Part shown: in pieces, positions 1 through 36,197 of the stretch
Numbering within the stretch: position 1 is the stretch's first letter
Layout: each line of letters begins with the position of its first letter
Assembly (NCBI GenBank): GCA_963789825.1
Contig: CAWBME010000005.1
Coordinates: forward strand, 257,239-321,238
DNA from: an uncultured Chloroflexia bacterium
GTDB lineage: Bacteria > Chloroflexota > Anaerolineae > Anaerolineales > E44-bin32
Reading direction: 5' to 3'
Length of the DNA stretch: 64,000 nt
Program-made: the position numbers and the translations under genes
Notes under the pieces: model-generated
What the model saw: only the letters and a program-made list of their open reading frames with translations
Databases searched by the model: none
Told to the model about the DNA's origin: nothing

Positions 1-1972
1 AAGTAGAAGCCGGTCCGGCCGTCCGGGTAGGGCAGCGTGCGCTCGACCTGCACGCCGGTGATCTTGGGGTTCTGCAGAATGGCTGCGTACTCCTCCGGCG
101 TGAGCACGAAGAGCAGCTCCCGGGTCAGTTCCCCAAAGTCTGCTAAGAAGCCGTCGGCATTGGAGACTTCGATCGGAGCTTCGTCGGAGATGAAGAAGCG
201 CTTGACGACATCGATCCCGTTGCCCCAGGTCGGCGAGACCAGCACGCGCTGATCGGGATTCGCCGCCACCACTTCGCTCACGGCGCCAAAGACCTGGGAG
301 GCGCCGTACTGCATCTCCATGCCGTACTCGCGATTCCACGTGGGCCCGTTCGCCAGCGCGTCCCGCAGCATGGCGAGGTTCACGCCGGCCAGGGCGACGA
401 ATACGATTGCCGCTACGGCCGGCGCGCTGCGTGGCGCCCGGCGGACCAGCCACTCCAGCGGCAGATCTACCCCAATGGTCACCAGCATCGTCGCCGGGAC
501 GACGAACGACAGCAGGCGAGTGATGCCTGCCCCGGCCACGGCGCCGGCGAGCGGGACGGCCAGCAGGCAGGCCAGCACGGCGCGATAGGCGGGATCGCGC
601 CAGCGCCGAACGGCCGCGACCAACCCGATCAGAGCCAAGGGCGCCATCCAGCGCGCCATGTGGCCGTAGCCCAACATCGTGTGCCGTGGCAGGTCATGCG
701 CCTGCGGCCAGAACCAATAGGCCGGGCTGATGCCGCGGCCGTAGGCCTGGAGCGAGAACAGGATCTTCCCAGCCAACGGCCCACCCTCCGCCCAGGGGCT
801 GGCCAGGATGCGCAGGATCTCCGGCTGCGCCTCCGGCATCTGCAGGTAGAAGCGCAGGTAGGGAAGCGCCAGAAGGGCCAGAACGAGCACCCCGCGCAGC
901 ACCACCGTGCGCTGGCGGCGATGGTAGGAGAAATCGGACACCACCAGCAGCGCCGCCGTCGCCGGGAGGATGATCTGCCCTGGGCTGTAGGTGTAGAAGG
1001 CCATCGCTCCGAACACCATCGCCAGGTACAGGCTCTTGGGTGACCGCAGCCGGTAGCGCAAGTAGAAATACAGGAAGCAGGCATAGAACGAGACCATCAG
1101 CGTGGTCTCGAAGGCAGTACGCGAGTGCAGGAACCAAGCTGGCACTGCCGAGAACAGGAGCACACCGACCCACCACAGGCGCAGGCGGAAGAAGTCGCGC
1201 AACGCGAAACCCGATAGCGAGCGCCCCGGGAAGGGTGAGCAGGGCAGCGGTGGCCCGCGTCGACGAAGACCGACTTGCCAAACAGCAAATACGGAATGAC
1301 CTGGGCGTAGACCGACAGGCTGAGGTTGAAACGATAGACATTCTGGAAATAGGTCGGGAAGTAGTTGCCGAGGAAGTCGCGAAAACCATCACGCACGAAG
1401 TCCGCCGCCAGCACGGTCTGCACGGCTTCGTCGGTGAAGAAGTAGATCGGGAAGTCGGCTAGGCGGATCAGGCGCAGAGCAAGATAGACCGCCAGCGACA
1501 GCCCGAACAGGACAAGGTCGAAGGCGGGACGCGTGGCAAGAGGACTGCGACCGCCAGTGAGCGGCGCCGACCAGGCGGCGATCTGGGAGCGCAGGCCTGC
1601 CCGCCGAGGGCGCTGCGGTGGCTCCGGCGCTGCAGCCGGGAGCATCTCCAGCTGAGGCTGTGCTGCCACGGAGGGGACTTCGTCCATCGAGGGTGGCGCC
1701 TTCGGGGTGGGCGCCTCGCCCACGGCGTGCTGGAAGATCACTCGCGGCCACTCGCCGGGTTGGGCGGCTTCGACCGTCAGCCGAACCCGGGTGCCGGGGG
1801 GAACCGTCACGCCCAGGGCAACCGACTCCGTGCCCGGAGGTGCGTCCTTCGACGGCTGCTGTTCGAAGGTCAGCTGAGGGCCAGCATCGGGGAGGGTGGG
1901 CTCGCGCCGCCCAGGCTTGCCCCGGCTGGCCTTTCGCCGGCCCTTGGCTCGCTGCCCTTCTCTCGAAGTCAT
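1..1972 (-). CDS. GT-C fold membrane glycosyltransferase, family 39 / ArnT-PMT-like (paralog 1); C-terminus lies beyond window start; two apparent frameshifts near 1200-1260
   Basis: ORF 1097..1972 gives ...FPIYFFTDEAVQTVLAADFVRDGFRDFLGNYFPTYFQNVYRFNLSLSVYAQVIPYLLFGKSVFV. The continuation TRATAALLTLPGALAIGF, then ALRDFFRLRLWWVGVLLFSAVPAWFLHSRTAFETTLMVSFYACFLYFYLRY..., lies in the other two minus frames. The last frame stays open to position 1 (manual translation). Multi-TM pattern typical of ArnT/PMT enzymes. Confidence 0.6.
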
Positions 1973-2017
1973 ACGCGGATCAACACCCTCCGGACCCCGA
2001 CCGCCATCGGCTTGCGA

Positions 2018-2563
2018 CTACTGCAGCGCTTGGCGCACTTCTTGGGTCAGTTCCTCGATGGGCACGTACATCACGCCCCGATTCTCAGCTGCCCCGTAGT
2101 CCTGCAGCCACACCAGCCGGCCGTCTTCATCGACCAGGGCGAAAGTATGTCCGGGCTCGCCCGATGCGACTGCCCACTGCAGAACGCCATAGGCTTCGGA
2201 CACCGAGTGGTCGGCATCACTCAGCATCGGTACGGAGGTGATGCCCAGGGCCTGCGCCTCCGGCGCCATTTCCTCGACGGAGTCGAAGGCGATGCTCAGC
2301 ACCGGGACTCCGAGGGACTGAAACTCAGGATCGTTTTGCAGGTCGACGACCTGCTGCATGCAAGGCGGTCAACCGACCGCCATGTGGAAGAAGAGCAGCA
2401 CCGGGCTGACGCCGGTGAAGTCGGATAGAGCGACCTGGGCGCCGCCGACCGCCGGCAGCGAGAACCCAGGCGCCTCATCGCCGACCTGCAGTCCGGCCGC
2501 AGGAGCGGACCGGCACCCGGCCAGGGCGAGCGCAGCGAAGAAGGCGAGTACCGTTGCACGCAT
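2018..2563 (-). CDS. Exported lipoprotein, thioredoxin-fold redoxin/peroxiredoxin-like; probable selenoprotein with U-P-P-C redox motif (TGA at 2369-2371 read as Sec)
   Basis: ORFs 2369..2563 and 2018..2359 share one frame and are split only by TGA. The joined sequence is MRATVLAFFAALALAGC...VSPVLLFFHMAVG-U-PPCMQQVVDLQNDPEF...GHTFALVDEDGRLVW. It has a lipobox (LALAGC) and a redoxin-like core, and the stop codon sits at the CxxC first-Cys position. Confidence 0.7.
2338..2354 (-). promoter_or_regulatory. Candidate SECIS hairpin 14 nt 3' of the in-frame UGA
   Basis: The minus-strand RNA GCAGGUC-GUC-GACCUGC forms a perfect 7-bp stem with a G/U-containing loop. Its position relative to the UGA is compatible with bacterial SECIS elements. 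Confidence 0.4.
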
Positions 2564-2635
2564 GGCTTCTCCTCAGGGGGCTGGCCCGGCTGTGCCGGCA
2601 TCGTTCCGATCTGGCCCGCCCTCACCGCCGACATT

Positions 2636-4610
2636 CTACTCGGACACCACCCAGGCCAGGATGGGCGGATTGCCGGGCATCTCCTCGAGGGCGATTTCTG
2701 CCCCGGTAGGATATGCTGCGCGGATCCGTGGGAGGATGTCCTGCTTCTCCAGAAGGAAGACGAAAGCATAGGGTGCAGATCCTGCCGGGCAATCCTGGCT
2801 GAGGGGCCAGGCGCCGTCACAGACGGGACGGCCCTGGATCAGGTAGTTCAGACTGGGGAAATTGGCGAAGCTCAGGCGCGGCTCGCCGAAGAGCACAACG
2901 CCGGTTTCCGGTGGAAGCTCGGCGGCAAACTCACCAACCACCCGGGCGGCGTAGGTAGCACTGTCGCCGTAGGCCCCGGCTGGGATGGCCTCGACGAAGA
3001 AGAAATGGGCTTCCCGCACAGCTACCAGCGTCACTGCCTGCAATCGTGCAGATGGCGACCAAACGCCGCAGCGCAGGGGAGGGAATTCCTCTGGCTTGCT
3101 CAACGATCCAGGCCGGGGCGCATGCGGCGATCATCGCTAGCACCGGCAAGATGCCCTGCATGCGGTGCCCGTTGGGAGCCTCCACGCTAAGGGTCCCGAC
3201 GAGGATCGCGCCCGTGAGCGCGCTGAGCAAGATCAACGAGCGCGGGTCGCGGAGGTTGCGCAGCAGGAGCAAACTGCCCAGGCAGAAGAGCACGGCGCTG
3301 AGTGGGAAGAGCATCGGCTGCGTCGGGTGATAGATGCCGCGAATCGGGACCGCCACCAGCCCGAGCACAGAGGTCCAGAACTGCGTCGGCAGCTCGCCCT
3401 GCGAGAACACGCGTGGGCCGTCTCCACCGGACAGCAGGCCTGAGATGTCGGCGACGGCCACGCCGCTCAAGGGGGCGGTGAACTCGTTGGGATGCGCCAC
3501 GAAGAAGAGCGTCAGCGGCAGGACCGTAACCAGACTCACCAGGACCAGGCTGAGCACTCCCTGCACCCGGTCTCGGGCGGGCCAGGTCATCGCAAGGATC
3601 ACCAGCCATAGCGGCACAGCCAGCACCAGCAGCCGGCCCGTTGGATAGAACAACTGCCCAAGCCCGATGGCGAGGCCGGAGAGAAGGAAGGCCCAGCGGG
3701 CGTTGGTCGTCCAGGCGACCCAGAGCGCCCCGATCACCAGCGCCAGGAAGAAACCGTCCCAGACGTTGTTGACCGCGATCCGGCTGAACATCAGGTGGAC
3801 GTGGGAGCCGGCCACGAGCAGCGCCGCGAAAGCCCCGTGAGCCCGGCCGTATAGACGCGAGCCCGTCCAGAAGGTAGCCAGCACGGCCAAGACCCCACCG
3901 ACGGCAGAGGGCAAGCGGGCAGCGAGCAGCGTCGGCCCCAGCCATCGCTGGGACAGGCTGACCAGCCAGAAGTAGAAGGAAGGGAAGGAGTGCCACGCCG
4001 TGCCGAACAGATTGGAGCGCGTTGCGCGGAGGAACTCCAGCCCGGTGATGGCTCCCGAGCCCTCGTCGCCGTTGACAGCGAAGGGGATGGTGTCCATCCG
4101 GTACAGACGCAGCGCCAGGGCGAGCAACCCGAGGCCGATCGCCAACGCCAGCGGGACGAAGGACTTGCGGTCAAGGTGCGGGCGCTCGCCTCGGTTCCAC
4201 AGGCCGGCCGCAGTGAGCACGATCCCACCGGCCCACAACCATCCGTGCATCGTCGAACGCGCCATGGCTTCATCGCCGGTCGCAGAGGCGGCGCCGAGCG
4301 CCAACAGCAGCCCATTGAACAGCAGCACGACCTGCGGTGGCGAGACGCCCAGCCAGCGCCCTAGGCGCTCCACCCCGGCCCATAGTGGCCGGAACCAGCG
4401 CCCGTCGTCGACCTCGAGCCCCAGGAAGAACAGCGTCAGCCCGGCGCCCAGAATCAGGGCGTTGATCAGGACTGACTGCGTTCCCCACAACAGCGCCAGG
4501 CCGACTGCTGCGAGGGCGAAACCGTCGAGCAGACAGATCGTCTGCTCATTGGCAAGCTTGCGCGATGGGGGAGTCTCCGAGTCAGCGGTTTGGAGGCTCA
4601 GCACGGCCAA
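2636..4610 (-). CDS. GT-C fold membrane glycosyltransferase, family 39-like (paralog 2); apparent frameshift near 3100
   Basis: The 559-aa ORF 2931..4610 is multi-TM (…RLYRMDTIPFAVNGDEGSGAITGLEF…HSFPSFYFWLVSLSQRWLGPTLLAARLPSAVGGVLAVLATFW…). The soluble C-terminal domain continues in ORF 2636..3103 in another frame. Confidence 0.65.
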
Positions 4611-27392: not shown

Positions 27393-29875
27393 ATGGAAAT
27401 CGGCACTGTCCAACAGGTCGATATCGACGAGCAGATGCGTGGGGCGTACCTCGACTACGCCATGAGCGTGATCGTGGCGCGCGCCCTGCCGGACGCCCGC
27501 GACGGCCTCAAGCCGGTTCACCGCCGCATCCTGTACGCCATGCACGACATGGGGATCCGCTCGAACACGCCCCACCGCAAGTCGGCCCGCATCGTGGGCG
27601 AGGTGCTCGGCAAGTACCACCCGCATGGGGACGTGGCGGTGTACGACACCATGGCCCGCCTGGCGCAGGACTTCTCGATGCGCTACCTGCTGATCGACGG
27701 CCAGGGCAATTTCGGCTCGATCGATGGCGACCCGCCGGCGGCCATGCGTTACACCGAGGCCCGCCTCAATCGCCAGGCGGAAGAATTGCTGCTCGATATC
27801 GACAAGGAGACGGTTGATTTCGTCGACAATTTCGACGCCTCCCTGCAGGAGCCGACGGTGCTGCCCGCCCGCCTGCCCAATCTACTGCTCAACGGAACCA
27901 CGGGCATCGCCGTCGGAATGGCCACCAACATCCCGCCGCACAACTTGCGCGAGCTGGCCAGCGCCATTCGCTTCCTGGTCGATGAATACGAGCGGATGGA
28001 CGAGATCGGCGTCGAAGACCTGATGCGGCATGTGCCCGGGCCGGACTTTCCCACCGGCGGCACGATCATCGGCATCGAGGGCATCAAGCAGGCCTACAGC
28101 ACCGGCAAGGGGCGCCTGGTCTTGCGAGCCACTGCCCACATCGAGGAGATGTCGGGCGGCCGCCACCGCATCGTGATCACCGAAATCCCCTACCAGATCA
28201 ACAAGACCGGGCTGATCGAACGGATTGCCGAGCTGGCGCGCGATGGCAGGCTCGACGACATCTCGGATCTGCGGGATGAGTTCGATCGGCGTGGCATGAG
28301 CCTGATCGTCGAGCTGCGTCGCGGAGCGCAGCCGAAGAAGGTCCTGAACAAGCTTTTCAAGTACACCCCGCTGCAGACGACCTACGGCGTGCAGATGCTG
28401 GCCCTGGTCGACGGCGAGCCGCGGGTGCTTTCGCTCAAGCGCGCCCTGCAGGTCTACATCGAGCACCGCCGGGCGGTGATCACCCGCCGCTCGCAGTTTG
28501 AACTTAGGAAGGCCCAGGCCCGGGCCCACATCCTGGATGGCCTGCTGATCGCCCTGGCCAACATCGACGCCGTCATCGAGACCATCCGCAAGTCGAAGGA
28601 CAGCGAAGCCGCCAAGGCCCGCCTGATGGAGCGCTTCTCGCTCAGCGAGCTCCAGGCGGTGGCCATCCTCGACATGCAGCTGCGCCGTCTGGCGGCGCTC
28701 GAGCGCGAGAAGATCGAGACGCGAACACAAAGAAGTTCTCAAGCGCATCGCCCAGCTGGAGGACCTGCTGGCGCATCCCAAGAAGCTACTGGGGGTCATC
28801 AAGGAAGACCTGAGCCAGGTGGAGGCTAGCCTACGGCGACGATCGCCGCTCGAAGATCGCCATCGACGCCTCGGAGGAGCTGCGCGAGGAAGACCTGGTG
28901 GCCGACGAGGCGGTGCTGGTCAGCATCACCGAGCGCGGCTACGTCAAGCGGGTGGCGGCGACGGCCTATCGACGCCAAGGCCGTGGCGGGCGCGGTGTCA
29001 TGGGTCACTCGATGCGCGGCGAAGATGAAGTGATGATGCTCTTCCCGGCGCGCTCGCTCGATACGGTGCTGTTCTTCTCCGATCGCGGCAAGGTGTACTC
29101 GGAGAAGGCCTACCAGATCCCGGACGCCAGCCGGACGGACCGCGGCGTGTCAATGGTCAACATCCTGGCGGTCGAGGCGGACGAGACGATCACCGCCACG
29201 GTGACCGTGCCCAACTTCGAGAGCGCCAACTACTGCACCATGGTCACGCGCAAGGGCAAGATCAAGCGCGTGCAGCTCTCCGAGTTCGCCGCCGTCCGGC
29301 CGTCGGGGTTGATCGCCATCTCGCTCGACAAGGGCGACGAACTCGGCTGGGTCAGGCTGACCAGCGGCAAGAACGAGATCATCCTGGTCACCGAGGCCGG
29401 CCAGGCGCTGCGCTTCCACGAGAAACTGGTGCGCCCGATGGGGCGCCCGGCTGCCGGCATGCGCGCCATCGCCCTGCGCGCCAAGGATCAGGTGGCCAGC
29501 ATGGACGTTGTCGAGGCCAAGGGGGATTTGCTGGTTGTGACCAAGAAAGGCTATGGCAAGCGCACGCCCCTCAAGGAGTACACCCCCAAGGGACGGGCTA
29601 CCAGCGGCGTGCTGACGCTGAGCAAAGAGAAGATGAGCCTCACCGGGCGGATCGCCGCCGCGCGTGTGGTGCACGCCGAGGACGACCTGACGATCATCTC
29701 CAGCGGCGGGATCATGCTGCGCACCAAGGTCGGCCAGGTGAAGCAGGCCGGGCGGGCGACGATGGGCGTGCGCGTGGTCGACCTGAAGGACAAGGACGAG
29801 GTGGGCTCGGTGGCCATCATCTCGGCCAAGGACCTCGAAGCGGCGGGGGTCGAGCAGAACGGGGCCGGCGGCTGA
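27393..29875 (+). CDS. gyrA: DNA gyrase subunit A; two apparent frameshifts near 28720 and 28830
   Basis: ...[32 protein letters not shown]...MRYTEARL.... The three frames join as ...LEREKIE / [36 protein letters not shown] / [26 protein letters not shown]..., followed by C-terminal beta-pinwheel repeats. Confidence 0.92.
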
Positions 29876-29991
29876 CGGGGCGAGCCCGGTCTGGTTTGCC
29901 CGCTCGTCCGGGGCTTGGGGGAGTGGCCCCGCACACCCGAGTCCCTGCCAGTCCCAGATGCCTACACCCACGCTAGAGTGCCCCATCCGTT

Positions 29992-30007
29992 TGTGACGTC
30001 CATCACG
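29992..30007. promoter_or_regulatory. CRP/FNR-family-like palindrome TGTGA-N6-TCACG upstream of the cytochrome operon
   Basis: TGTGACGTCCATCACG matches 9 of 10 positions of TGTGA-N6-TCACA. It lies about 170 bp upstream of ATG 30175, and a GATAAT box sits at 30053-30058. Confidence 0.3.
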
Positions 30008-30174
30008 AGGAGCGGGTGACATCCTTCTCTCCCCTTCGGCACATGCCCAAGCGATAATCCCAGAGAATAGTGGTATTCGCTTATGCGGATGAAAGCTGGT
30101 CCCTGAGCACGGGTGGGCGGCTTCATGAGCCGCCGCATCTGCCAGCGAAGTTCCGCCTCAAGGGAGACAAGCGC

Positions 30175-31634
30175 ATGCGACGTCGCTACGTGTGGATCCT
30201 GGGGCTTGCCGTCACCCTGGCGTTGATCCTCATCCCGATCGCCATCTTCTTCCCCCGCGCGGAGCCGGCGCGCGATGACCCGGCGGCAGCGCTCACGGTG
30301 CGCAAGCCGCCGACCGACCATCAGCCGCTGATGACCGGCCCTTACACCACCGGCGAAGACGTGACGCGCGCCTGCCTGGAATGCCATGCCGACGAAGCCG
30401 ACGAAGTGATGCAGACCGTTCATTGGACCTGGGAGAGCAAGCCCTACCCGATTCCCGGCCACGATGAGCTGGTGACGATCGGCAAGAAGAACAGCCTCAA
30501 CAACTTCTGCATCGGCATCCAGTCCAACTGGGCCGGATGCACCTCCTGCCACGCCGGCTACGGCTGGGAAGATGCCGACTTCGACTTCGGCGACAGCGAG
30601 AAGGTCGACTGCCTGGTGTGCCATGACAACACCGGCACCTACCTGAAGGGACAGGCAGGACTGCCGGCTGAGGGCGTCGACCTGGCCTACGTGGCGCAGA
30701 GCGTCACCTGCCCGACCCGGGAGAACTGCGGCTCGTGCCACTTCTCCGGGGGCGGCGGCAACGCCGTCAAACACGGCGACCTCGATCAGCACCTGATCTA
30801 CCCGACCGAGAACCTGGACGTGCACATGGGCGGCCAGGACATGCTGTGCACCGACTGCCACCAGACCGAGGATCACCAGATCCGCGGCCGGGCGATCTCG
30901 GTCAGCTTCGACCAGGAGAACCAGGCGCATGTGCACGGATTGCCACAGCCAGGCGCCGCATGAGGACGACCGCATCAACACCCACCTGGCCAGCGTCGCT
31001 TGCCAGACCTGCCACGTCCCGGCTGGCGGCACAGGCGATCCGACCAAGATGACCTGGGACTGGTCGACCGCCGGACAAGATCGGCCGGAGGACGAGCACG
31101 AGTATCTGAAGATCAAGGGCTCGTTCTTCTACGAAGAGCGACTTCACGCCGGAGTACTTACTGGTACAACGGCATCTCCGATCGCTATATCCTGGGAGAT
31201 ACGTTTGATCCAAGTCAGCCGCTCAACATGAACCCGCTGGCCGGCGATATCAATGACCCGGACGCCCGCATCTTCCCCTTCAAGGTGCATCGGGCCAAGC
31301 AGCCGTACGACACGCGTCTACAACTACCTGCTCCAGCCCAAGACCTTCGGCGAGGGCGGGTTCTGGACGGAGTTCGACTGGGACCAGGCGCTCCGGATGG
31401 GCTCCGAGGCCGTCGGCCTACCCTTCAGTGGGGAGTACGGCTTCGCCGAGACCGAGATGTACTGGCCGCTGACGCACACCGTCGCACCGGCCGGACAAGG
31501 CACTGCTGTGCGCCGACTGCCATTCACCGGAGGGGCGGCTCGACTGGCAGGCGCTCGGCTATCCCGGTGACCCGATGGAATGGGGCGTGCGGAGTCCGGC
31601 CGCTCCAGGCGAGACCGCGCAGGTGACACCATGA
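30175..31634 (+). CDS. Membrane-anchored octaheme c-type cytochrome, tetrathionate reductase (Otr) family-like; four apparent frameshifts (near 30925, 31148, 31315, 31495)
   Basis: N-terminal TM segment (RRRYVWILGLAVTLALILIPIAIFF). Eight CxxCH motifs: CLECH, CTSCH, CLVCH, CGSCH, CTDCH, CTDCH, CQTCH, CADCH. Blocks such as TVHWTWES and IGKKNSLNNFCIGIQSNWAGCTSCH recall the Otr family from memory. AGGGAG RBS; the stop overlaps the next start (ATGA). Confidence 0.7.
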
Positions 31635-34385
31635 TCTTGCGCGGCAGGCTCCTCCATCCGATCTTCGGCGTGCTCGTCTTCGTCGGGCTGCTGCTGATCG
31701 TCGGCGGCCTCCAGGCGTTGGACGCCTCCGCTGCGCTGAGCTTCAAGCCCGCCGCAGCAGACCTCTCCCCTTCACCCCGATGTGGCGCTGTTGGATGCGG
31801 ATGGCGTGAATGTGTTGGAGAGCGGCAAGCCCGTCTCCACGATGCGCACCTGTGGCGAGTGCCACGACACCGAGTTCATCGCCGCCCATTCCGGCCATTC
31901 GCAGGCTGGCCTCGATAGCTTGGCGCCCGCCGGGGAAACCTCGACCGGGCGTCCCTGGGACATGAGCGAGGGGATCTTCGGGAAGTGGGACCCGATGGTC
32001 TATCGCGTGCTGTCCGAGAGCGGCGGCGCGGAGCTCGACCTAGGGACGGCCGGCTGGGTCCAGACCATCGGGGCCCGCCACGTCGGCGGGGGGCCGGCGG
32101 CGCTCAGCCGCGACGGCACGCCCCTGCAGGAACTGCCAGTCCGCTCCGACGATCCCGAAACCAGCTGGCTCGACCCCGAAAGCGGACAGGTGCGGGCTTG
32201 GGATTGGGAGCAGTCCGGCGTCGTCGAGATGAATTGCTTCCTGTGCCATACGGCCGAGCCCGACAATGCGGCGCGCATCGAGGCCCTGCAGCAGGGTTCC
32301 TTCGGCTGGGCCAACACGGCCACGCTGCTGGCAACCGGCCTGGTCGACCGCACAGGCGATACCTATCGCTGGAACCCATCGGCCTTCGCCGAAGACGGGA
32401 CGGTCACCGCCGCCCAGCTGGCGATCCAGGACCCGGTCAACGAGAACTGCGGTCAGTGCCACGGGCTGGTGCACGATGAGGGCGACGACCCGATTGTAGC
32501 GGTCAGTTGCGACCCGGCGATTCGCCGCACGGTGACCACCGGCCAGATCATCGCCCCCGAGCGGCTCTCTGACTCGGGGATGAACCTGGTCGGCAAGGAA
32601 GACCTAACCCGGCCGTGGGACATCCATGCCGAGCGCCGGGTGGAGTGCACCGACTGCCACTACTCGCTCAACAACCCGGTCTACTTCCAGGAGGCCGAGA
32701 GCGCCCGCCCGGAGCACCTGACCTTCGACCCGCGCCGTCTCGAACTGGGTGAGTACCTGTACCAGCCGTTGCACGATCTGGCGCGTGGGCCAAGCCTCAG
32801 CGATCCAGTGACGCCGGAACAGGCCGGCTCGATGCGCCGCTGCGACTCTTGTCACAGCATCGAGTCCACCCATGACTGGTTGCCCTACAAGGACCGCCAC
32901 CTGGCAGCCTTGAGCTGCGAGACCTGCCACGTGCCGGATATGTACTCCAACGCCGCCCGGCAGGTCGACTGGACCGTGCTGCGCCCTGACAGCTTCGCCC
33001 GCGGCATCTGCCGTGGCACAGACACCACAGTTGGCGGACAGCCGGTCATCACCGGCTTCCAGCCGGTGTGGATGCCGCGCCAGGAACCGGATGGCAGCGC
33101 CCCGCTGACCCCCTACAACCTGGTGACGACCTGGTTCTGGGTTGCCGGCGATCCTGAGCAGCCGGTTCGCCTGACCGAACTGGAGGGCGCCTGGTTCGTG
33201 GGCGATGCCTATGCCCCGGAAGTGATTGCCGCCCTGGATGCGGATGGGGACGGAGCGCTGGCGGACGTGGAACTGCAGCTGGACACGCCGGAGAAGGTGG
33301 AGCTGATCGCCGGTCGCCTGGCGGCACTCGGGGTGGAGAACCCGCGGATCACCGGCGAGATCCAACCCTTCGGCATTCACCACACCATCGCCAGCGATGA
33401 GTGGGCGATCCAGGACTGCCAGGACTGCCACAGTGACCAGTCACGCCTCACCCAGTCCTTCGACCTCGCCGCGTACGTGCCTCCCGGCGCCGAAGCGGCG
33501 TTTGTTGGCGGTTCGACCGCCATCACCTCGGGCGAGATCGTGGCCGCCTCCGACGGCGGGTTGGTGTATCAGCCCGACACCGGGTCGCGCCAGTTGTATG
33601 TTCTGGGACACGACCGTGCCGAGTGGGTCGACTGGCTGGGCGGGCTGCTCTTCGTCGGTGTGCTGATCGGGATCGTGATCCATGGCGGCTTGCGCGTGGT
33701 TTCGGCGATGCGCCACCGCGGGGCTGCCGCCGAACCGGCCACCGAGACCGTGCGCATGTACGGTGTCTACGAACGCCTGTGGCACTGGCTTCAGACCTTC
33801 GCCATCGTGGCGCTGCTCTTCACCGGCCTGGTGATCCACCGTCCCGACAGCTTCGGCATGTTCAGCTTCCGCGGCGTTGTTCTGGTCCACAACATCCTGG
33901 CGGCGATCCTGGTGGTGAACGCCGGCCTGTCGCTCTTCTATCACCTGACCAGCGGGGAGATCCGCCAGTTCGTCCCGCGCCCGGTCGGCTTCTTTGACCA
34001 GGCCATGCTGCAGGCCAAGTACTACCTGAAGGGCATCTTCCGCAATGAACCGCATCCGTTCGAGAAGACGCCGGGCAGGAAGCTCAACCCGCTGCAGCAG
34101 GTGACCTACTTCGGGATCCTCAACGTACTGCTGCCGCTGATGATCCTGACCGGCATCCTGATGTGGGGCGCGCAACGCTGGCCGGAGTACTCGGCCTTGA
34201 TCGGCGGACTAACCGTCCTCGGCCCGGTGCACGCCGGCGTCGCCTGGATGCTGGCGGCTTTCATTGTCGGGCACGTCTATCTGACCACCACTGGGCCCAA
34301 GCCCTTGAGCAGCCTGCAGGGAATGATGTTCGGCACAGAGGCAGTCGAGAAGGGTCCTCTGGAGACCCAGGGAGGGAAGGCATGA
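31631..34385 (+). CDS. Heptaheme cytochrome c fused to a C-terminal di-heme cytochrome b membrane domain (PhsC / FdnI / Ni-Fe hydrogenase cyt b family-like); one apparent frameshift near 31778
   Basis: Signal anchor MILRGRLLHPIFGVLVFVGLLLIVGG. Seven CxxCH motifs: CGECH, CFLCH, CGQCH, CTDCH, CDSCH, CETCH, CQDCH. A C-terminal domain of about 230 aa has 4-5 TM helices and four spaced His (RLWHW, LVHNIL, GPVHAG, IVGHVYL). Confidence 0.75.
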
Positions 34386-34957
34386 CCACAAGCTCCGAGA
34401 TCGGGACGGCCCCGAAGCGAGGACTCCTGCACGCGCTCACCGGCCGGCCGGAAAGGCCATATGCCAATTCCTACGCCGCCGGTGCGTTGCTGGGGATCGT
34501 GCTGTTCCTGTCGTTCTTCATCACCGGCAACGGCCTGGGCGCTTCCGGTGGGTTGAACCGGATGATCGTCTTCGTCGAAGACCTGATCGCGCCGGCCCAC
34601 ATCGACCGCACGCCCTACCTGATCGAGATGGCGGGCGGGGTGCGCAACGCCCTCGATAGCTGGGTGGTGTTCGTCGCCCTGGGGGCGCTGGTTGGCGGCT
34701 TTGCCTCTGGTTGGTTCAACGGTCGGCTGAAGGCGGAGACCAAGAAGGGGCCGCGCATTTCGGTGCGCACCCGCTGGGCGACGGCTTTCGTCGGCGGAGC
34801 GATCATGGGCTATGGCGCCCGCTTCGCCCGCGGTTGCACCTCCGGCCAGGCGCTATCCGGCGGAGCGACGCTCTCTGTCGGAAGTTGGGCGCTGATGTTC
34901 TGCATCTTCGGCAGCGCCTACGCCCTGGCGTACTTTGTGCGCCGTTTGTGGACATAG
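34382..34957 (+). CDS. YeeE/YedE family sulfur-compound transporter half-protein
   Basis: The ATG overlaps the upstream stop. Multi-TM with ...FITGNGLGASGG... and ...GYGARFARGCTSGQALSGG... (sulphur-transport repeat with a conserved Cys). Confidence 0.8.
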   Translation: MTTSSEIGTAPKRGLLHALTGRPERPYANSYAAGALLGIVLFLSFFITGNGLGASGGLNRMIVFVEDLIAPAHIDRTPYLIEMAGGVRNALDSWVVFVALGALVGGFASGWFNGRLKAETKKGPRISVRTRWATAFVGGAIMGYGARFARGCTSGQALSGGATLSVGSWALMFCIFGSAYALAYFVRRLWT

Positions 34958-34967
34958 GGAGGTCAGT

Positions 34968-36197
34968 ATGCCGCCGTTTCCGCTCCACCTCGAGTCCCTG
35001 GTCGGCCAGTACGGCAGCTACCTGGTCTTCTTGCTGATCGGTATCGCCTTCGGCTATGCGTTGGAGATTGCCGGCTTCGGCAACTCCATCAAGCTGGCCA
35101 ACCAGTTCTACCTGAAAGACATGACCGTGCTCAAAGTGATGTTCACGGCGATCGTCGTGGCCATGGTGCTGATTTTCGGTGCCAGTGCCCTCGGCTTGCT
35201 GGACGTCAACCTGATCTGGGTCAATCCCACCTACCTGATCCCGGGGCTCGTCGGCGGCCTGATCATGGGCGTTGGCTTCATCGTCGGCGGCTTCTGCCCC
35301 GGCACCTCGGTGGTGGCAATGGCCACCTGGAAGATCGACGGCCTGTTCTATGTGCTGGGCACGCTGTTCGGCATCTTCCTGTTCGGTGAGACCGTCGACA
35401 ACTTCAGCGCCTTCTGGAACTCGACCTACATGGGCCGGTTGATGCTGCCCGAATGGCTGGGCGTGGATACCGGCGTGGTCGTGGTGGGCGTCGTGCTGAT
35501 GGCGATCGGTATGTTCGCCGGCGCCGAGCAGCTGGAGCGCATCTTTGGCAAGAAGGACCTGAAGGCCGAGCCGCGCCGGCGTTTCGTCGGCGCCGGGGCA
35601 CTGGTCGGGTTGGCGGTGGTGGTTGCGCTGATCGGTCAGCCGACCACCAAAGACCGCTGGCAGGCCGTATCCAGCGTCAAGGAAGCGGCGCTTGCCGAGC
35701 GGCAGGTCCAGATCGAGCCCGGGGAGCTGCTGAACCTGCTGCACGACCACGAGCTCAAGCCGATGCTGCTCGATGTGCGCGACGAGGCAGACTACAACCT
35801 GTTCCATCTCGAACGGGCGATGCACGTGACGCCGGAGATGTTGCCCGAGCGGCTGGAGGAGTTCCAGCTCGAGGGCCCGACGACGGTGTTCGTGGTGATG
35901 AGCAATGATGAGCAGGCGGCAACAGAAGTATGGAAGACGCTGGTGGCCGAGAGTGTGCCCAACGTCTACGTCCTCTCGGGCGGCGTCAACGGCTGGCTCG
36001 ACACCTTTGCCGCCGAGGATGAGCGCATCCAGCCGGCGGAGCCCGGCGCGCCGGACGCGCTGCGCTACACCTTCGCCGCGGCGCTGGGCTCAACCTACCC
36101 GGCCGCCGATCCGAACCCCGGGGAGTATGCGTTGGAGTACCCGACGAAGATCAAGCTAGAACTGAAGCGCGGCCCGACCGGCGGCGGCTGCGGTTGA
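34968..36197 (+). CDS. YeeE/YedE family transporter half fused to a rhodanese-homology domain; C-terminal GGGCG tail
   Basis: GGGAGG RBS. ...IMGVGFIVGGFCPGTSVV... belongs to the membrane domain. The rhodanese-like region (...MLLDVRDEADYNLFHLERAMHV...VFVVMSNDEQAATEVW...VLSGGVNGW) has Ser where the catalytic Cys is expected. The protein ends ...KIKLELKRGPTGGGCG. Confidence 0.75.
   Translation: MPPFPLHLESLVGQYGSYLVFLLIGIAFGYALEIAGFGNSIKLANQFYLKDMTVLKVMFTAIVVAMVLIFGASALGLLDVNLIWVNPTYLIPGLVGGLIMGVGFIVGGFCPGTSVVAMATWKIDGLFYVLGTLFGIFLFGETVDNFSAFWNSTYMGRLMLPEWLGVDTGVVVVGVVLMAIGMFAGAEQLERIFGKKDLKAEPRRRFVGAGALVGLAVVVALIGQPTTKDRWQAVSSVKEAALAERQVQIEPGELLNLLHDHELKPMLLDVRDEADYNLFHLERAMHVTPEMLPERLEEFQLEGPTTVFVVMSNDEQAATEVWKTLVAESVPNVYVLSGGVNGWLDTFAAEDERIQPAEPGAPDALRYTFAAALGSTYPAADPNPGEYALEYPTKIKLELKRGPTGGGCG

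Follow-up and report, generated by a model that had tools for sequence, protein, structure and literature searches.

A putative sulfur-carrier arm on a split YeeE-type channel encoded beside an Otr-family octaheme cytochrome

Within a 64,000-nucleotide stretch of genome from an uncultured Chloroflexia bacterium (contig CAWBME010000005.1, positions 257,239 to 321,238; called the window throughout), two adjacent genes encode the halves of a YeeE/YedE-type channel, P0001 and P0002. P0002 continues beyond its membrane part into a rhodanese homology domain without cysteine (Cys) and ends in a glycine-rich tail whose penultimate residue is Cys. On balance, we lean toward a reading in which the pair forms a heterodimeric YeeE-type channel with a tethered outer sulfur-carrier arm, serving both the channel and the Otr-family octaheme c-type cytochrome encoded nearby. 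The anatomy of the proteins, the conservation of their motifs, the exchange of Cys for selenocysteine (Sec) at both P0002 cysteines and the linkage of the genes are all read directly from the loci compared here.

Anatomy of the channel pair and its tail

P0001 (positions 34382-34957 of the window, + strand) is a YeeE/YedE C-half-like subunit of 191 amino acids that corresponds to helices H8-H13 of YeeE. Its ATG and the TGA stop of the cytochrome gene before it overlap (ATGA, 34382-34385), and the gene for P0002 (34968-36197; 409 amino acids) follows in the same direction after 10 nucleotides (nt), preceded by a GGGAGG ribosome-binding site. Residues 1-222 of P0002 (34968-35633, + strand) comprise the YeeE N-half H1-H6, an H7-like helix at residues 168-186 and an extra transmembrane (TM) helix at 206-222. 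An earlier note, made from the sequence alone, had called the two a split YeeE/YedE pair, and the profile searches bear this out: PF04143 (Sulf_transp) matches P0001 with 66.9 bits over profile positions 176-308 and P0002 with 48.7 bits over positions 9-199, against a Pfam gathering cut-off of 27 bits. TsuA would be expected as a single polypeptide with nine TM helices, and here there are two genes; the TsuA/YeeE equivalogs NF052577 and NF041049 reach 34 and 16.4 bits against cut-offs of 400 and 645, and the selenium-YedE models of NCBIfam reach 24-27 bits against cut-offs of 200-350. As both halves match PF04143 and these equivalogs stay far under their cut-offs, the pair is, by its profile matches, a split YeeE/YedE of the PmpAB kind and not a TsuA ortholog. 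PmpAB itself is a precedent for split YeeE halves (PMC11582611). A Foldseek search of the Protein Data Bank (PDB) with the whole P0002 model returned nothing for the channel half.

P0002 has only two cysteines, C110 and C408. The first (codon TGC, 35295-35297, + strand) lies in the channel loop GGFCPGTS, is the equivalent of YeeE C91 and is invariant in all 121 close family sequences (query included). The first pore loop (LA) is free of Cys. In P0001 the pore-loop Cys is C152, in an outer-side loop reading ARGCTSGQ, a motif that its homolog shares.

The rhodanese homology domain spans P0002 residues 251-344 (35718-35999, + strand), where PF00581 scores 51.4 bits against a cut-off of 22.2, and the Foldseek search returned rhodanese structures only (GlpE, YgaP and others). 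In an active rhodanese the active-site loop has six residues, the first of them Cys. In the AlphaFold2 (AF2) model of P0002, with a predicted local distance difference test (pLDDT) score of 77, a strand at 306-311 leads into the four-residue, acidic loop S312-N-D-E and then into a helix from residue 316, so that the Cys-opened, six-residue loop of a catalytically active sulfurtransferase is missing. The position of the catalytic Cys falls on M311 or S312, depending on the alignment. HMMER alignments to GlpE 1GMX and to 6MXV place it opposite V309 to M311, with the register uncertain, and in the family alignment the loop Cys of two rare relatives, P0123 and P0230, falls opposite S312 (codon AGC, 35901-35903, + strand), which therefore stands at or next to the catalytic position. 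Those two are the only ones among about 100 distant representatives to have a loop Cys, and none of the 121 close sequences has one. The earlier note had described the domain as Cys-less with Ser in the Cys loop, pointing to the peptide TTVFVVMSNDEQAATEVW, which we locate at residues 305-322. There is indeed no Cys anywhere in the domain, nor at any position between residues 111 and 407, and the PF00581, 1GMX and 6MXV alignments disclose no catalytic Cys elsewhere in the loop. Because no register supplies a Cys and the loop is short and acidic, the domain is, as judged from its sequence, a rhodanese homology domain without the usual sulfurtransferase chemistry.

The C-terminal tail, G-P-T-G-G-G-C-G plus stop, occupies 36171-36197 (+ strand), with the TGC codon of C408 at 36189-36191; the longer terminal peptide singled out earlier, KIKLELKRGPTGGGCG, is residues 394-409. 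Tail residues 402-409 are the sole part of the AF2 model with pLDDT below 50 and are predicted to be flexible or disordered. In an alignment of 74 sequences G407, C408 and G409 are invariant, and 119 of the 121 close sequences end GCG, the other two ending GCGG or GCGS. Conservation of the Gly-flanked terminal Cys in orthologs, which the earlier note had left as a check, thus holds, and the tail is conserved far more than chance would allow. The tail Cys is present at 79 of 80 species-genome loci, the 80th having TGA at the Cys codon, and at 73 of the 75 metagenome loci that reach the C-terminus in a scan with the protein of locus L063, among which no TGA was seen. A distant search through 1.84 billion 50%-identity representatives gave 316 clusters at E < 1e-30; down to 31% identity, nearly all full-length representatives end GGCG, GGC, GGCS, EGC or RGC, and a Lys/Arg-rich linker usually precedes the motif. 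An assembly artefact at the C-terminus was also considered. P0001 and P0002 show no insertions relative to L200, a syntenic contig of 84% identity that served as the reference for frame checks; as both frames are clean, the terminal motif stands.

In the solved YeeE structure the N-terminus lies outside; each half is built of four TM helices plus two re-entrant loops, and the chain is turned over by H7 (PMC7449682). P0001 is predicted to have both termini inside. For P0002, the mean numbers of Lys and Arg over the 121 sequences are 2.3, 1.0 and 5.4 in the predicted inside loops (sum 8.7) and 0.5, 0.0 and 1.2 in the predicted outside loops (sum 1.7). The loop at residues 187-205, between the H7-like helix and the extra helix, is strongly basic. 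This charge bias, together with the N-out topology of YeeE and its H7 flip, places the rhodanese domain and tail outside the cytoplasm, and the extra helix likewise puts the domain that follows it outside. The predicted extracytoplasmic location agrees with the nature of the partners, c-type cytochromes anchored at their N-termini, and with two further proteins of the Bacteroidota cassettes that are tailed ...PRGGC and begin with either a lipoprotein signal (LLSAC) or a membrane anchor.

Linkage to an octaheme cytochrome

Upstream of the channel genes lie two cytochrome genes on the same strand, partners that were missing from the earlier note, as were the outside topology and the Cys/Sec evidence. 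Partner 1 (30175-31626, +) is an Otr-family octaheme c-type cytochrome gene, broken up by 1-nt insertions; two of its pieces match TIGR04315, at 269.6 and 155.8 bits (cut-off 375). The intact homolog of relatives scores 578.5 bits, intact orthologs at the same position score 500-646 bits, and all have eight CxxCH motifs. Partner 2 (31631-34385, +; start approximate owing to a 1-nt insertion at 31755) is a fusion of a seven-CxxCH cytochrome c domain with a PhsC-like cytochrome b, the membrane subunit on the quinol side (PF01292, 88.7 bits), and its intact homolog has seven CxxCH. The cytochrome b part resembles PhsC (E = 3e-37). Its match to NF011582, the thiosulfate reductase cytochrome b subunit, has E = 2.7e-36, but the 125.4 bits fall under the 204-bit cut-off of that model.

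The order octaheme cytochrome, seven-haem c/cytochrome b, P0001 homolog, P0002 homolog is found at all of the 80 genome loci that have enough flank. The P0001 homolog lies directly upstream of the P0002 homolog in 79 of 80 loci, the 80th being a 2.3-kb contig with too little flank. Among 81 genomes of the window's order (the order sample), 25 have the P0002 family, 29 have Otr and 24 have both; where both occur, they almost always share a contig at a distance of about 4.6 kb. The lone genome with P0002 only is a partial match in a fragmented genome. The same cassette recurs at roughly 30-35% identity in the cultured Perlabentimonas gracilis (Bacteroidales; locus L196), in an Ignavibacteriales metagenome-assembled genome (MAG) and in a third genome. 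In these distant cassettes Otr scores 533 and 599 bits against TIGR04315 and cytochrome b is a separate gene, and two of the three encode in addition a lipoprotein whose two rhodanese domains are active and a small dead rhodanese with an anchor, RGGC being the ending of all of them.

As the cassette always adjoins Otr, the enzyme probably works on sulfur held on the arm, so far as gene order can tell. The physiological substrate of Otr is still unsettled, and a 2026 study found no role for it in tetrathionate respiration and suggested sulfite reduction instead (PMC12949373). For an enzyme in such dispute, the strict linkage offers a concrete, testable hypothesis (PMC12949373). That linkage could also be taken to mean that the tail Cys is a ligand, coordinating the Otr active-site haem iron or a metal such as the Cu(I) of the related sulfite reductase MccA and so completing or regulating the site. 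The haems of MccA and Otr superimpose, and the copper site of MccA is absent from Otr (PMC12949373). Yet several differently built proteins with the same tail in one operon would be unusual for a structural ligand, and a disordered tail with Sec substitution is typical of exchange chemistry, so we rate a ligand role as highly improbable.

The Bacteroidota-type cassettes at L196 (5301-6359 and 8238-8831) and L198 (5411-6469 and 8277-8894) each encode two extra exported ...PRGGC rhodaneses. The lipoprotein has two rhodanese domains that keep the active-site Cys (C-x-x-G-Q), and the anchored Cys-less domain has the loop Y-A-[ND]-[ST]-E-A-E, which is like that of P0002.

Selenocysteine at the two P0002 cysteines

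In eight loci, TGA stands at one or both Cys positions of P0002, seven having it in the tail and five in the channel. Four of these are Sec/Sec forms (L166, L167, L191 and L192), with GG[FY]-TGA-PGTS in the channel and ...GGG-TGA-GGN-stop in the tail; L063, L190 and L193 combine a channel Cys with a tail TGA, and L201 a channel TGA with a tail Cys. The window's own P0002 has Cys codons at both sites. Between the tail TGA and the stop there is invariably a single Gly codon (GGC, GGT or GGA), and translation past the TGA is therefore under selection. A perfect hairpin of 6-7 base pairs (bp) with a G-first triloop begins 15-17 nt past the TGA in all seven Sec-tail loci. When the pattern is loosened, it still matches no more than 1 of 144 Cys-tail loci. 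Between loci the stems vary by compensatory changes (GCCGCC/GGCGGC, GCCGCA/TGCGGC and GTCGCA/TGCGAC). After the channel TGA (L166, L167, L191, L192 and L201), a short hairpin, GGTAGC-GGTC-GCTACC, follows about 14 nt later. Of the four genomes that could be checked for SelB, those of L063, L166 and L201 have a match above the cut-off, while in the L193 genome SelB is fragmentary. The family, though not the window's copy, thus combines TGA at conserved Cys codons, a hairpin like a selenocysteine insertion sequence (SECIS) and SelB.

An Rfam search of the L063 3' region returned no known family, and the L063 hairpin by itself has a weak fold z-score of -1.69; the weight of the hairpin comes from the comparison across loci and not from the fold score of a single one. 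A phylum-wide sample of 401 genomes gave 18 with the P0002 family, all of one order and none in a Sec form. That the channel TGA is a true stop is ruled out, as it would cut a conserved membrane domain, and a true stop in the tail is very unlikely.

Public gene calls contain further proteins with these signs. P0169 ends ...GGG and starts just past the GGFCPGTS motif. A search from it gave 116 clusters. In 33 of them the protein stops at ...GGG, just one residue short of the Cys, and 24 of the 33 also begin just past the channel motif. Owing to the two TGA codons, Sec forms are annotated as a fragment of 114-117 amino acids plus a "rhodanese" of 289-307 amino acids, or they end at ...GGG, and such product lengths and endings can serve as annotation signs of Sec forms. 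Mis-called examples are P0169, P0273-P0304, P0330 and the gene calls in L166, L167, L191 and L192.

Exchange between Cys and Sec is a classical mark of a redox-active or nucleophilic residue. Its occurrence at C110 and C408 argues that both cysteines take part in chemistry, and we take both to be chemically active on this evidence. Since each invariant Cys is separately replaced by Sec, these are the residues singled out for mutation. The published selenoprotein lists hold one YeeE/YedE entry with the motif GUxSG (WP_012471001.1) and five rhodanese forms, and neither the GGF-U-PGTS loop nor the C-terminal GG-U-G was found in those lists (PMC13188914, PMC9312934). The catalogued YeeE/YedE selenoprotein is of the same Pfam family and, as here, has Sec in place of a pore-loop Cys, but its Sec lies in the GCTSG-type loop that P0001 keeps as Cys, while the positions described here are in the other loop and in the tail. 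We therefore have two apparently uncatalogued Sec positions, one of them with a SECIS-like hairpin in the 3' untranslated region.

The Sec forms also bear on what the tail does. Since GG directly precedes the Cys in most members, the final Cys-Gly might be cleaved and the new C-terminus thiocarboxylated, as in ThiS, MoaD and QbsE-type carriers; QbsE-type carriers end in GG plus two residues that are later removed. Recoding to Sec would serve no purpose at a residue destined for removal, many relatives have no GG and end EGC or RGC instead, and the fold is rhodanese and not beta-grasp. Outside the cell, where the domain is predicted to be, adenylation would lack ATP, and the cassette contains no E1-like or JAMM gene. 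This makes thiocarboxylation scarcely credible, and it was rejected as incompatible with Sec recoding.

A selenium system is another candidate, in which the cytochromes would reduce selenite or other selenium species outside, the arm would bind S-Se and the YedE-like channel would import it for selenoproteins. YedE relatives are linked to selenium and the selenium-YedE models do match, if weakly; the window's genome and many relatives use selenocysteine, and some family members are themselves selenoproteins. Those model scores nonetheless fall far below their cut-offs, and SelD is about as common with the cassette (21 of 25 genomes in the order sample) as without it (39 of 56), four cassette genomes of 92-96% completeness having none. 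The active rhodaneses and Otr point to sulfur. We consider a selenium system quite unlikely, and a selenium-specific role was set aside as the leading interpretation on the SelD cross-tabulation.

Two further observations concern selenocysteine in the window and its order. At 35312-35327, just past the Cys110 codon of the window's Cys-form gene, a 6-bp hairpin (GGTGGC-AATG-GCCACC) can form where Sec-form relatives have the SECIS-like GGTAGC-GGTC-GCTACC; it could be a relic or a mere consequence of the conserved peptide. The SelD matches above cut-off, found in 60 of the 81 genomes of the order sample including that of the window, each contain one in-frame TGA, which makes SelD itself a selenoprotein throughout the order sampled.

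A proposed carrier arm between enzyme and channel

In the mechanism that we propose, P0001 and P0002 would form a heterodimeric YeeE-type sulfur channel, and P0002 would extend an arm on the extracytoplasmic face, made of a non-catalytic rhodanese fold acting as scaffold or docking module and of the flexible Gly-rich tail. The penultimate Cys, or Sec in some lineages, would hold a sulfur species covalently, be it a persulfide or polysulfide, an S-thiosulfonate or an S-sulfonate. The arm would shuttle between the active site of the neighbouring Otr-family cytochrome and the outer mouth of the channel, where the relay would run through C152 of P0001 at the outer side and then C110 of P0002. Otr would be wired to the quinone pool through the haem-c/cytochrome-b subunit, giving fifteen c haems and cytochrome b in all. 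That the cargo is bound covalently, what it is, which way it travels and which partners touch are all inferred.

The direction would most likely be reductive, since PhsC-type subunits serve quinol-oxidising reductases and the tetrathionate/thiosulfate couple is far more positive than menaquinone. With the arm predicted outside the cell beside an octaheme cytochrome, transfer may as well run from the enzyme or the environment to the arm and on to the channel as from the channel to the arm, the route suggested in the earlier note. A bolder form of the proposal, which we advance tentatively and would not expect to hold, is that Otr acts in cells on sulfur held on Gly-Gly-Cys/Sec arms and not on free tetrathionate, and that its product crosses by a thiol/selenol relay from C408 to C152 of P0001 and C110 of P0002, making the pore a "bucket brigade" and no simple anion channel. 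If true, an arm-bound substrate would answer what Otr does, a question open since 2004, and the relay would define a new mode of sulfur translocation.

Several points weigh against the carrier arm. The adduct and the direction of transfer are guesses. In the window's order, a few genomes have an Otr gene but not the channel. Neither TusA nor another obvious cytoplasmic acceptor was found in the window's 90%-complete genome, which weakens a scheme of import to TusA. Finally, the window's own Otr gene carries five 1-nt insertions relative to L200 (at 30927, 31137, 31159, 31314 and 31495), in which the gene is intact and encodes 484 amino acids. Further 1-nt insertions lie in the haem-c/cytochrome-b gene (31755) and in gyrA (28721 and 28833), which is split into products of 478 and 325 amino acids instead of one of 826. 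Because an essential gene is also affected, the insertions in all three genes, which fall within 27393-31760, are probably assembly errors and not signs of decay into pseudogenes.

The same cysteines could instead form a redox gate, in which a disulfide or selenenylsulfide between the tail Cys and a channel Cys plugs the outer mouth and the cytochromes open or close it, with no cargo on the arm. Both invariant cysteines can be Sec, together in several lineages, as would fit a redox pair; the flexible tail adjoins the channel, and the cysteines of YeeE itself form a disulfide in crystals (PMC7449682). Either Cys, though, can be Sec alone (L063 and L201), and eight plus seven haems would be a costly outlay for gating. 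In Bacteroidota cassettes the ...PRGGC tail also occurs on two proteins that are separate from the channel, and one of these, a lipoprotein, has a pair of active rhodanese domains; such an arrangement suits diffusible carriers better than a plug. We regard a redox gate as unlikely, and a carrier arm attached to a transporter, as proposed in the earlier note, remains the best reading.

The arm was first described as SoxY-like. SoxY holds sulfur intermediates on the Cys of an invariant C-terminal GGCGG peptide, and the tail here, G-G-G-C-G in P0002 and GGCG, GGC or [ER]GC in relatives, is similar but not identical. SoxY has one reactive, Gly-flanked Cys at the extreme C-terminus of a flexible arm outside the cytoplasm, as is predicted for P0002. 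SoxY is likewise served by c-type cytochromes, and it has been proposed to pass sulfur to the YeeE-like importer SoxT (PMC11582611). In contrast, SoxY is a soluble heterodimer, while the P0002 arm is fused to a transporter, has a rhodanese fold and shows no kinship to SoxY in sequence or fold: PF13501 gave no match to P0002 at E <= 0.1, and no SoxY was found in the window's 90%-complete genome, a search that did not take in SoxZ, SoxXA or SoxB. The likeness is one of motif and position only, and hence no more than a functional analogy.

DsrC presents sulfur to DsrAB. Like DsrC/TusE, whose penultimate Cys sits on a mobile C-terminal arm and presents sulfur to a multi-centre sulfur reductase, P0002 has a penultimate Cys (C408 of 409 residues) on a flexible C-terminal arm. 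DsrC/TusE differs in having another fold, which no Pfam match detects in P0002, two arm cysteines, a cytoplasmic location and a sirohaem partner, where P0002 has one Cys, a predicted outside location and an octaheme partner. The Sud protein of Wolinella succinogenes is a periplasmic polysulfide-sulfur transferase of rhodanese fold that carries sulfur on one Cys and feeds a quinol-linked periplasmic sulfur reductase. Its Cys is in the canonical active-site loop; in P0002 the loop Cys is gone, the Cys is on the tail and the domain is fused to a channel.

For the membrane part, a comparison is offered by the thiosulfate uptake system YeeE-YeeD (TsuA-TsuB), whose channel is a member of this family and likewise has pore loops that bear Cys (PMC7449682). 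YeeD, with its one reactive Cys, docks at the channel mouth and binds cargo covalently (PMC7449682, PMC11073785). YeeD is a separate, cytoplasmic protein of TusA fold, however, whereas the partner domain of P0002 is rhodanese-fold, fused and predicted to be outside. Compared with YeeE-YeeD and PmpAB, the P0001-P0002 pair keeps the H7-like helix and has one extra helix.

Our literature search found no publication describing either the cassette or the fused protein. Carrier arms with a terminal Cys, YeeE pores and rhodanese folds are each known as principles; what is new is their combination, the predicted tethering outside, the obligatory Otr partner and the double Cys/Sec sites. Terminal-Cys arms of the SoxY and DsrC type are central to sulfur energy metabolism. 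If P0002 is a carrier, it would add to these a third, unrelated design, in which a dead rhodanese fold is joined to a membrane channel.

Minor observations concern the spread and the surroundings of the cassette. The complete cassette is also found in five MAGs labelled Chromatiaceae, Lysobacterales or Xanthomonadales (L056, L062, L065, L069 and L079), with 56-58% identity to the protein from Chloroflexota, reflecting either horizontal transfer or mis-binned contigs. In the window, gyrA lies upstream of the cassette and there is no ArsR-type regulator. Five Sec-form loci have an ArsR/SmtB-family regulator directly upstream, with weak TsoR and BigR scores, oriented with the cassette in L190 (856-1206), L191 (387-746) and L192 (455-796) and divergently in L166 (within 1-3400) and L167 (3255-3587). 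Beyond the regulator, L166 encodes TusA, two DsrE proteins and a lipoate-protein ligase, which are commonly found together with cytoplasmic sulfur oxidation.

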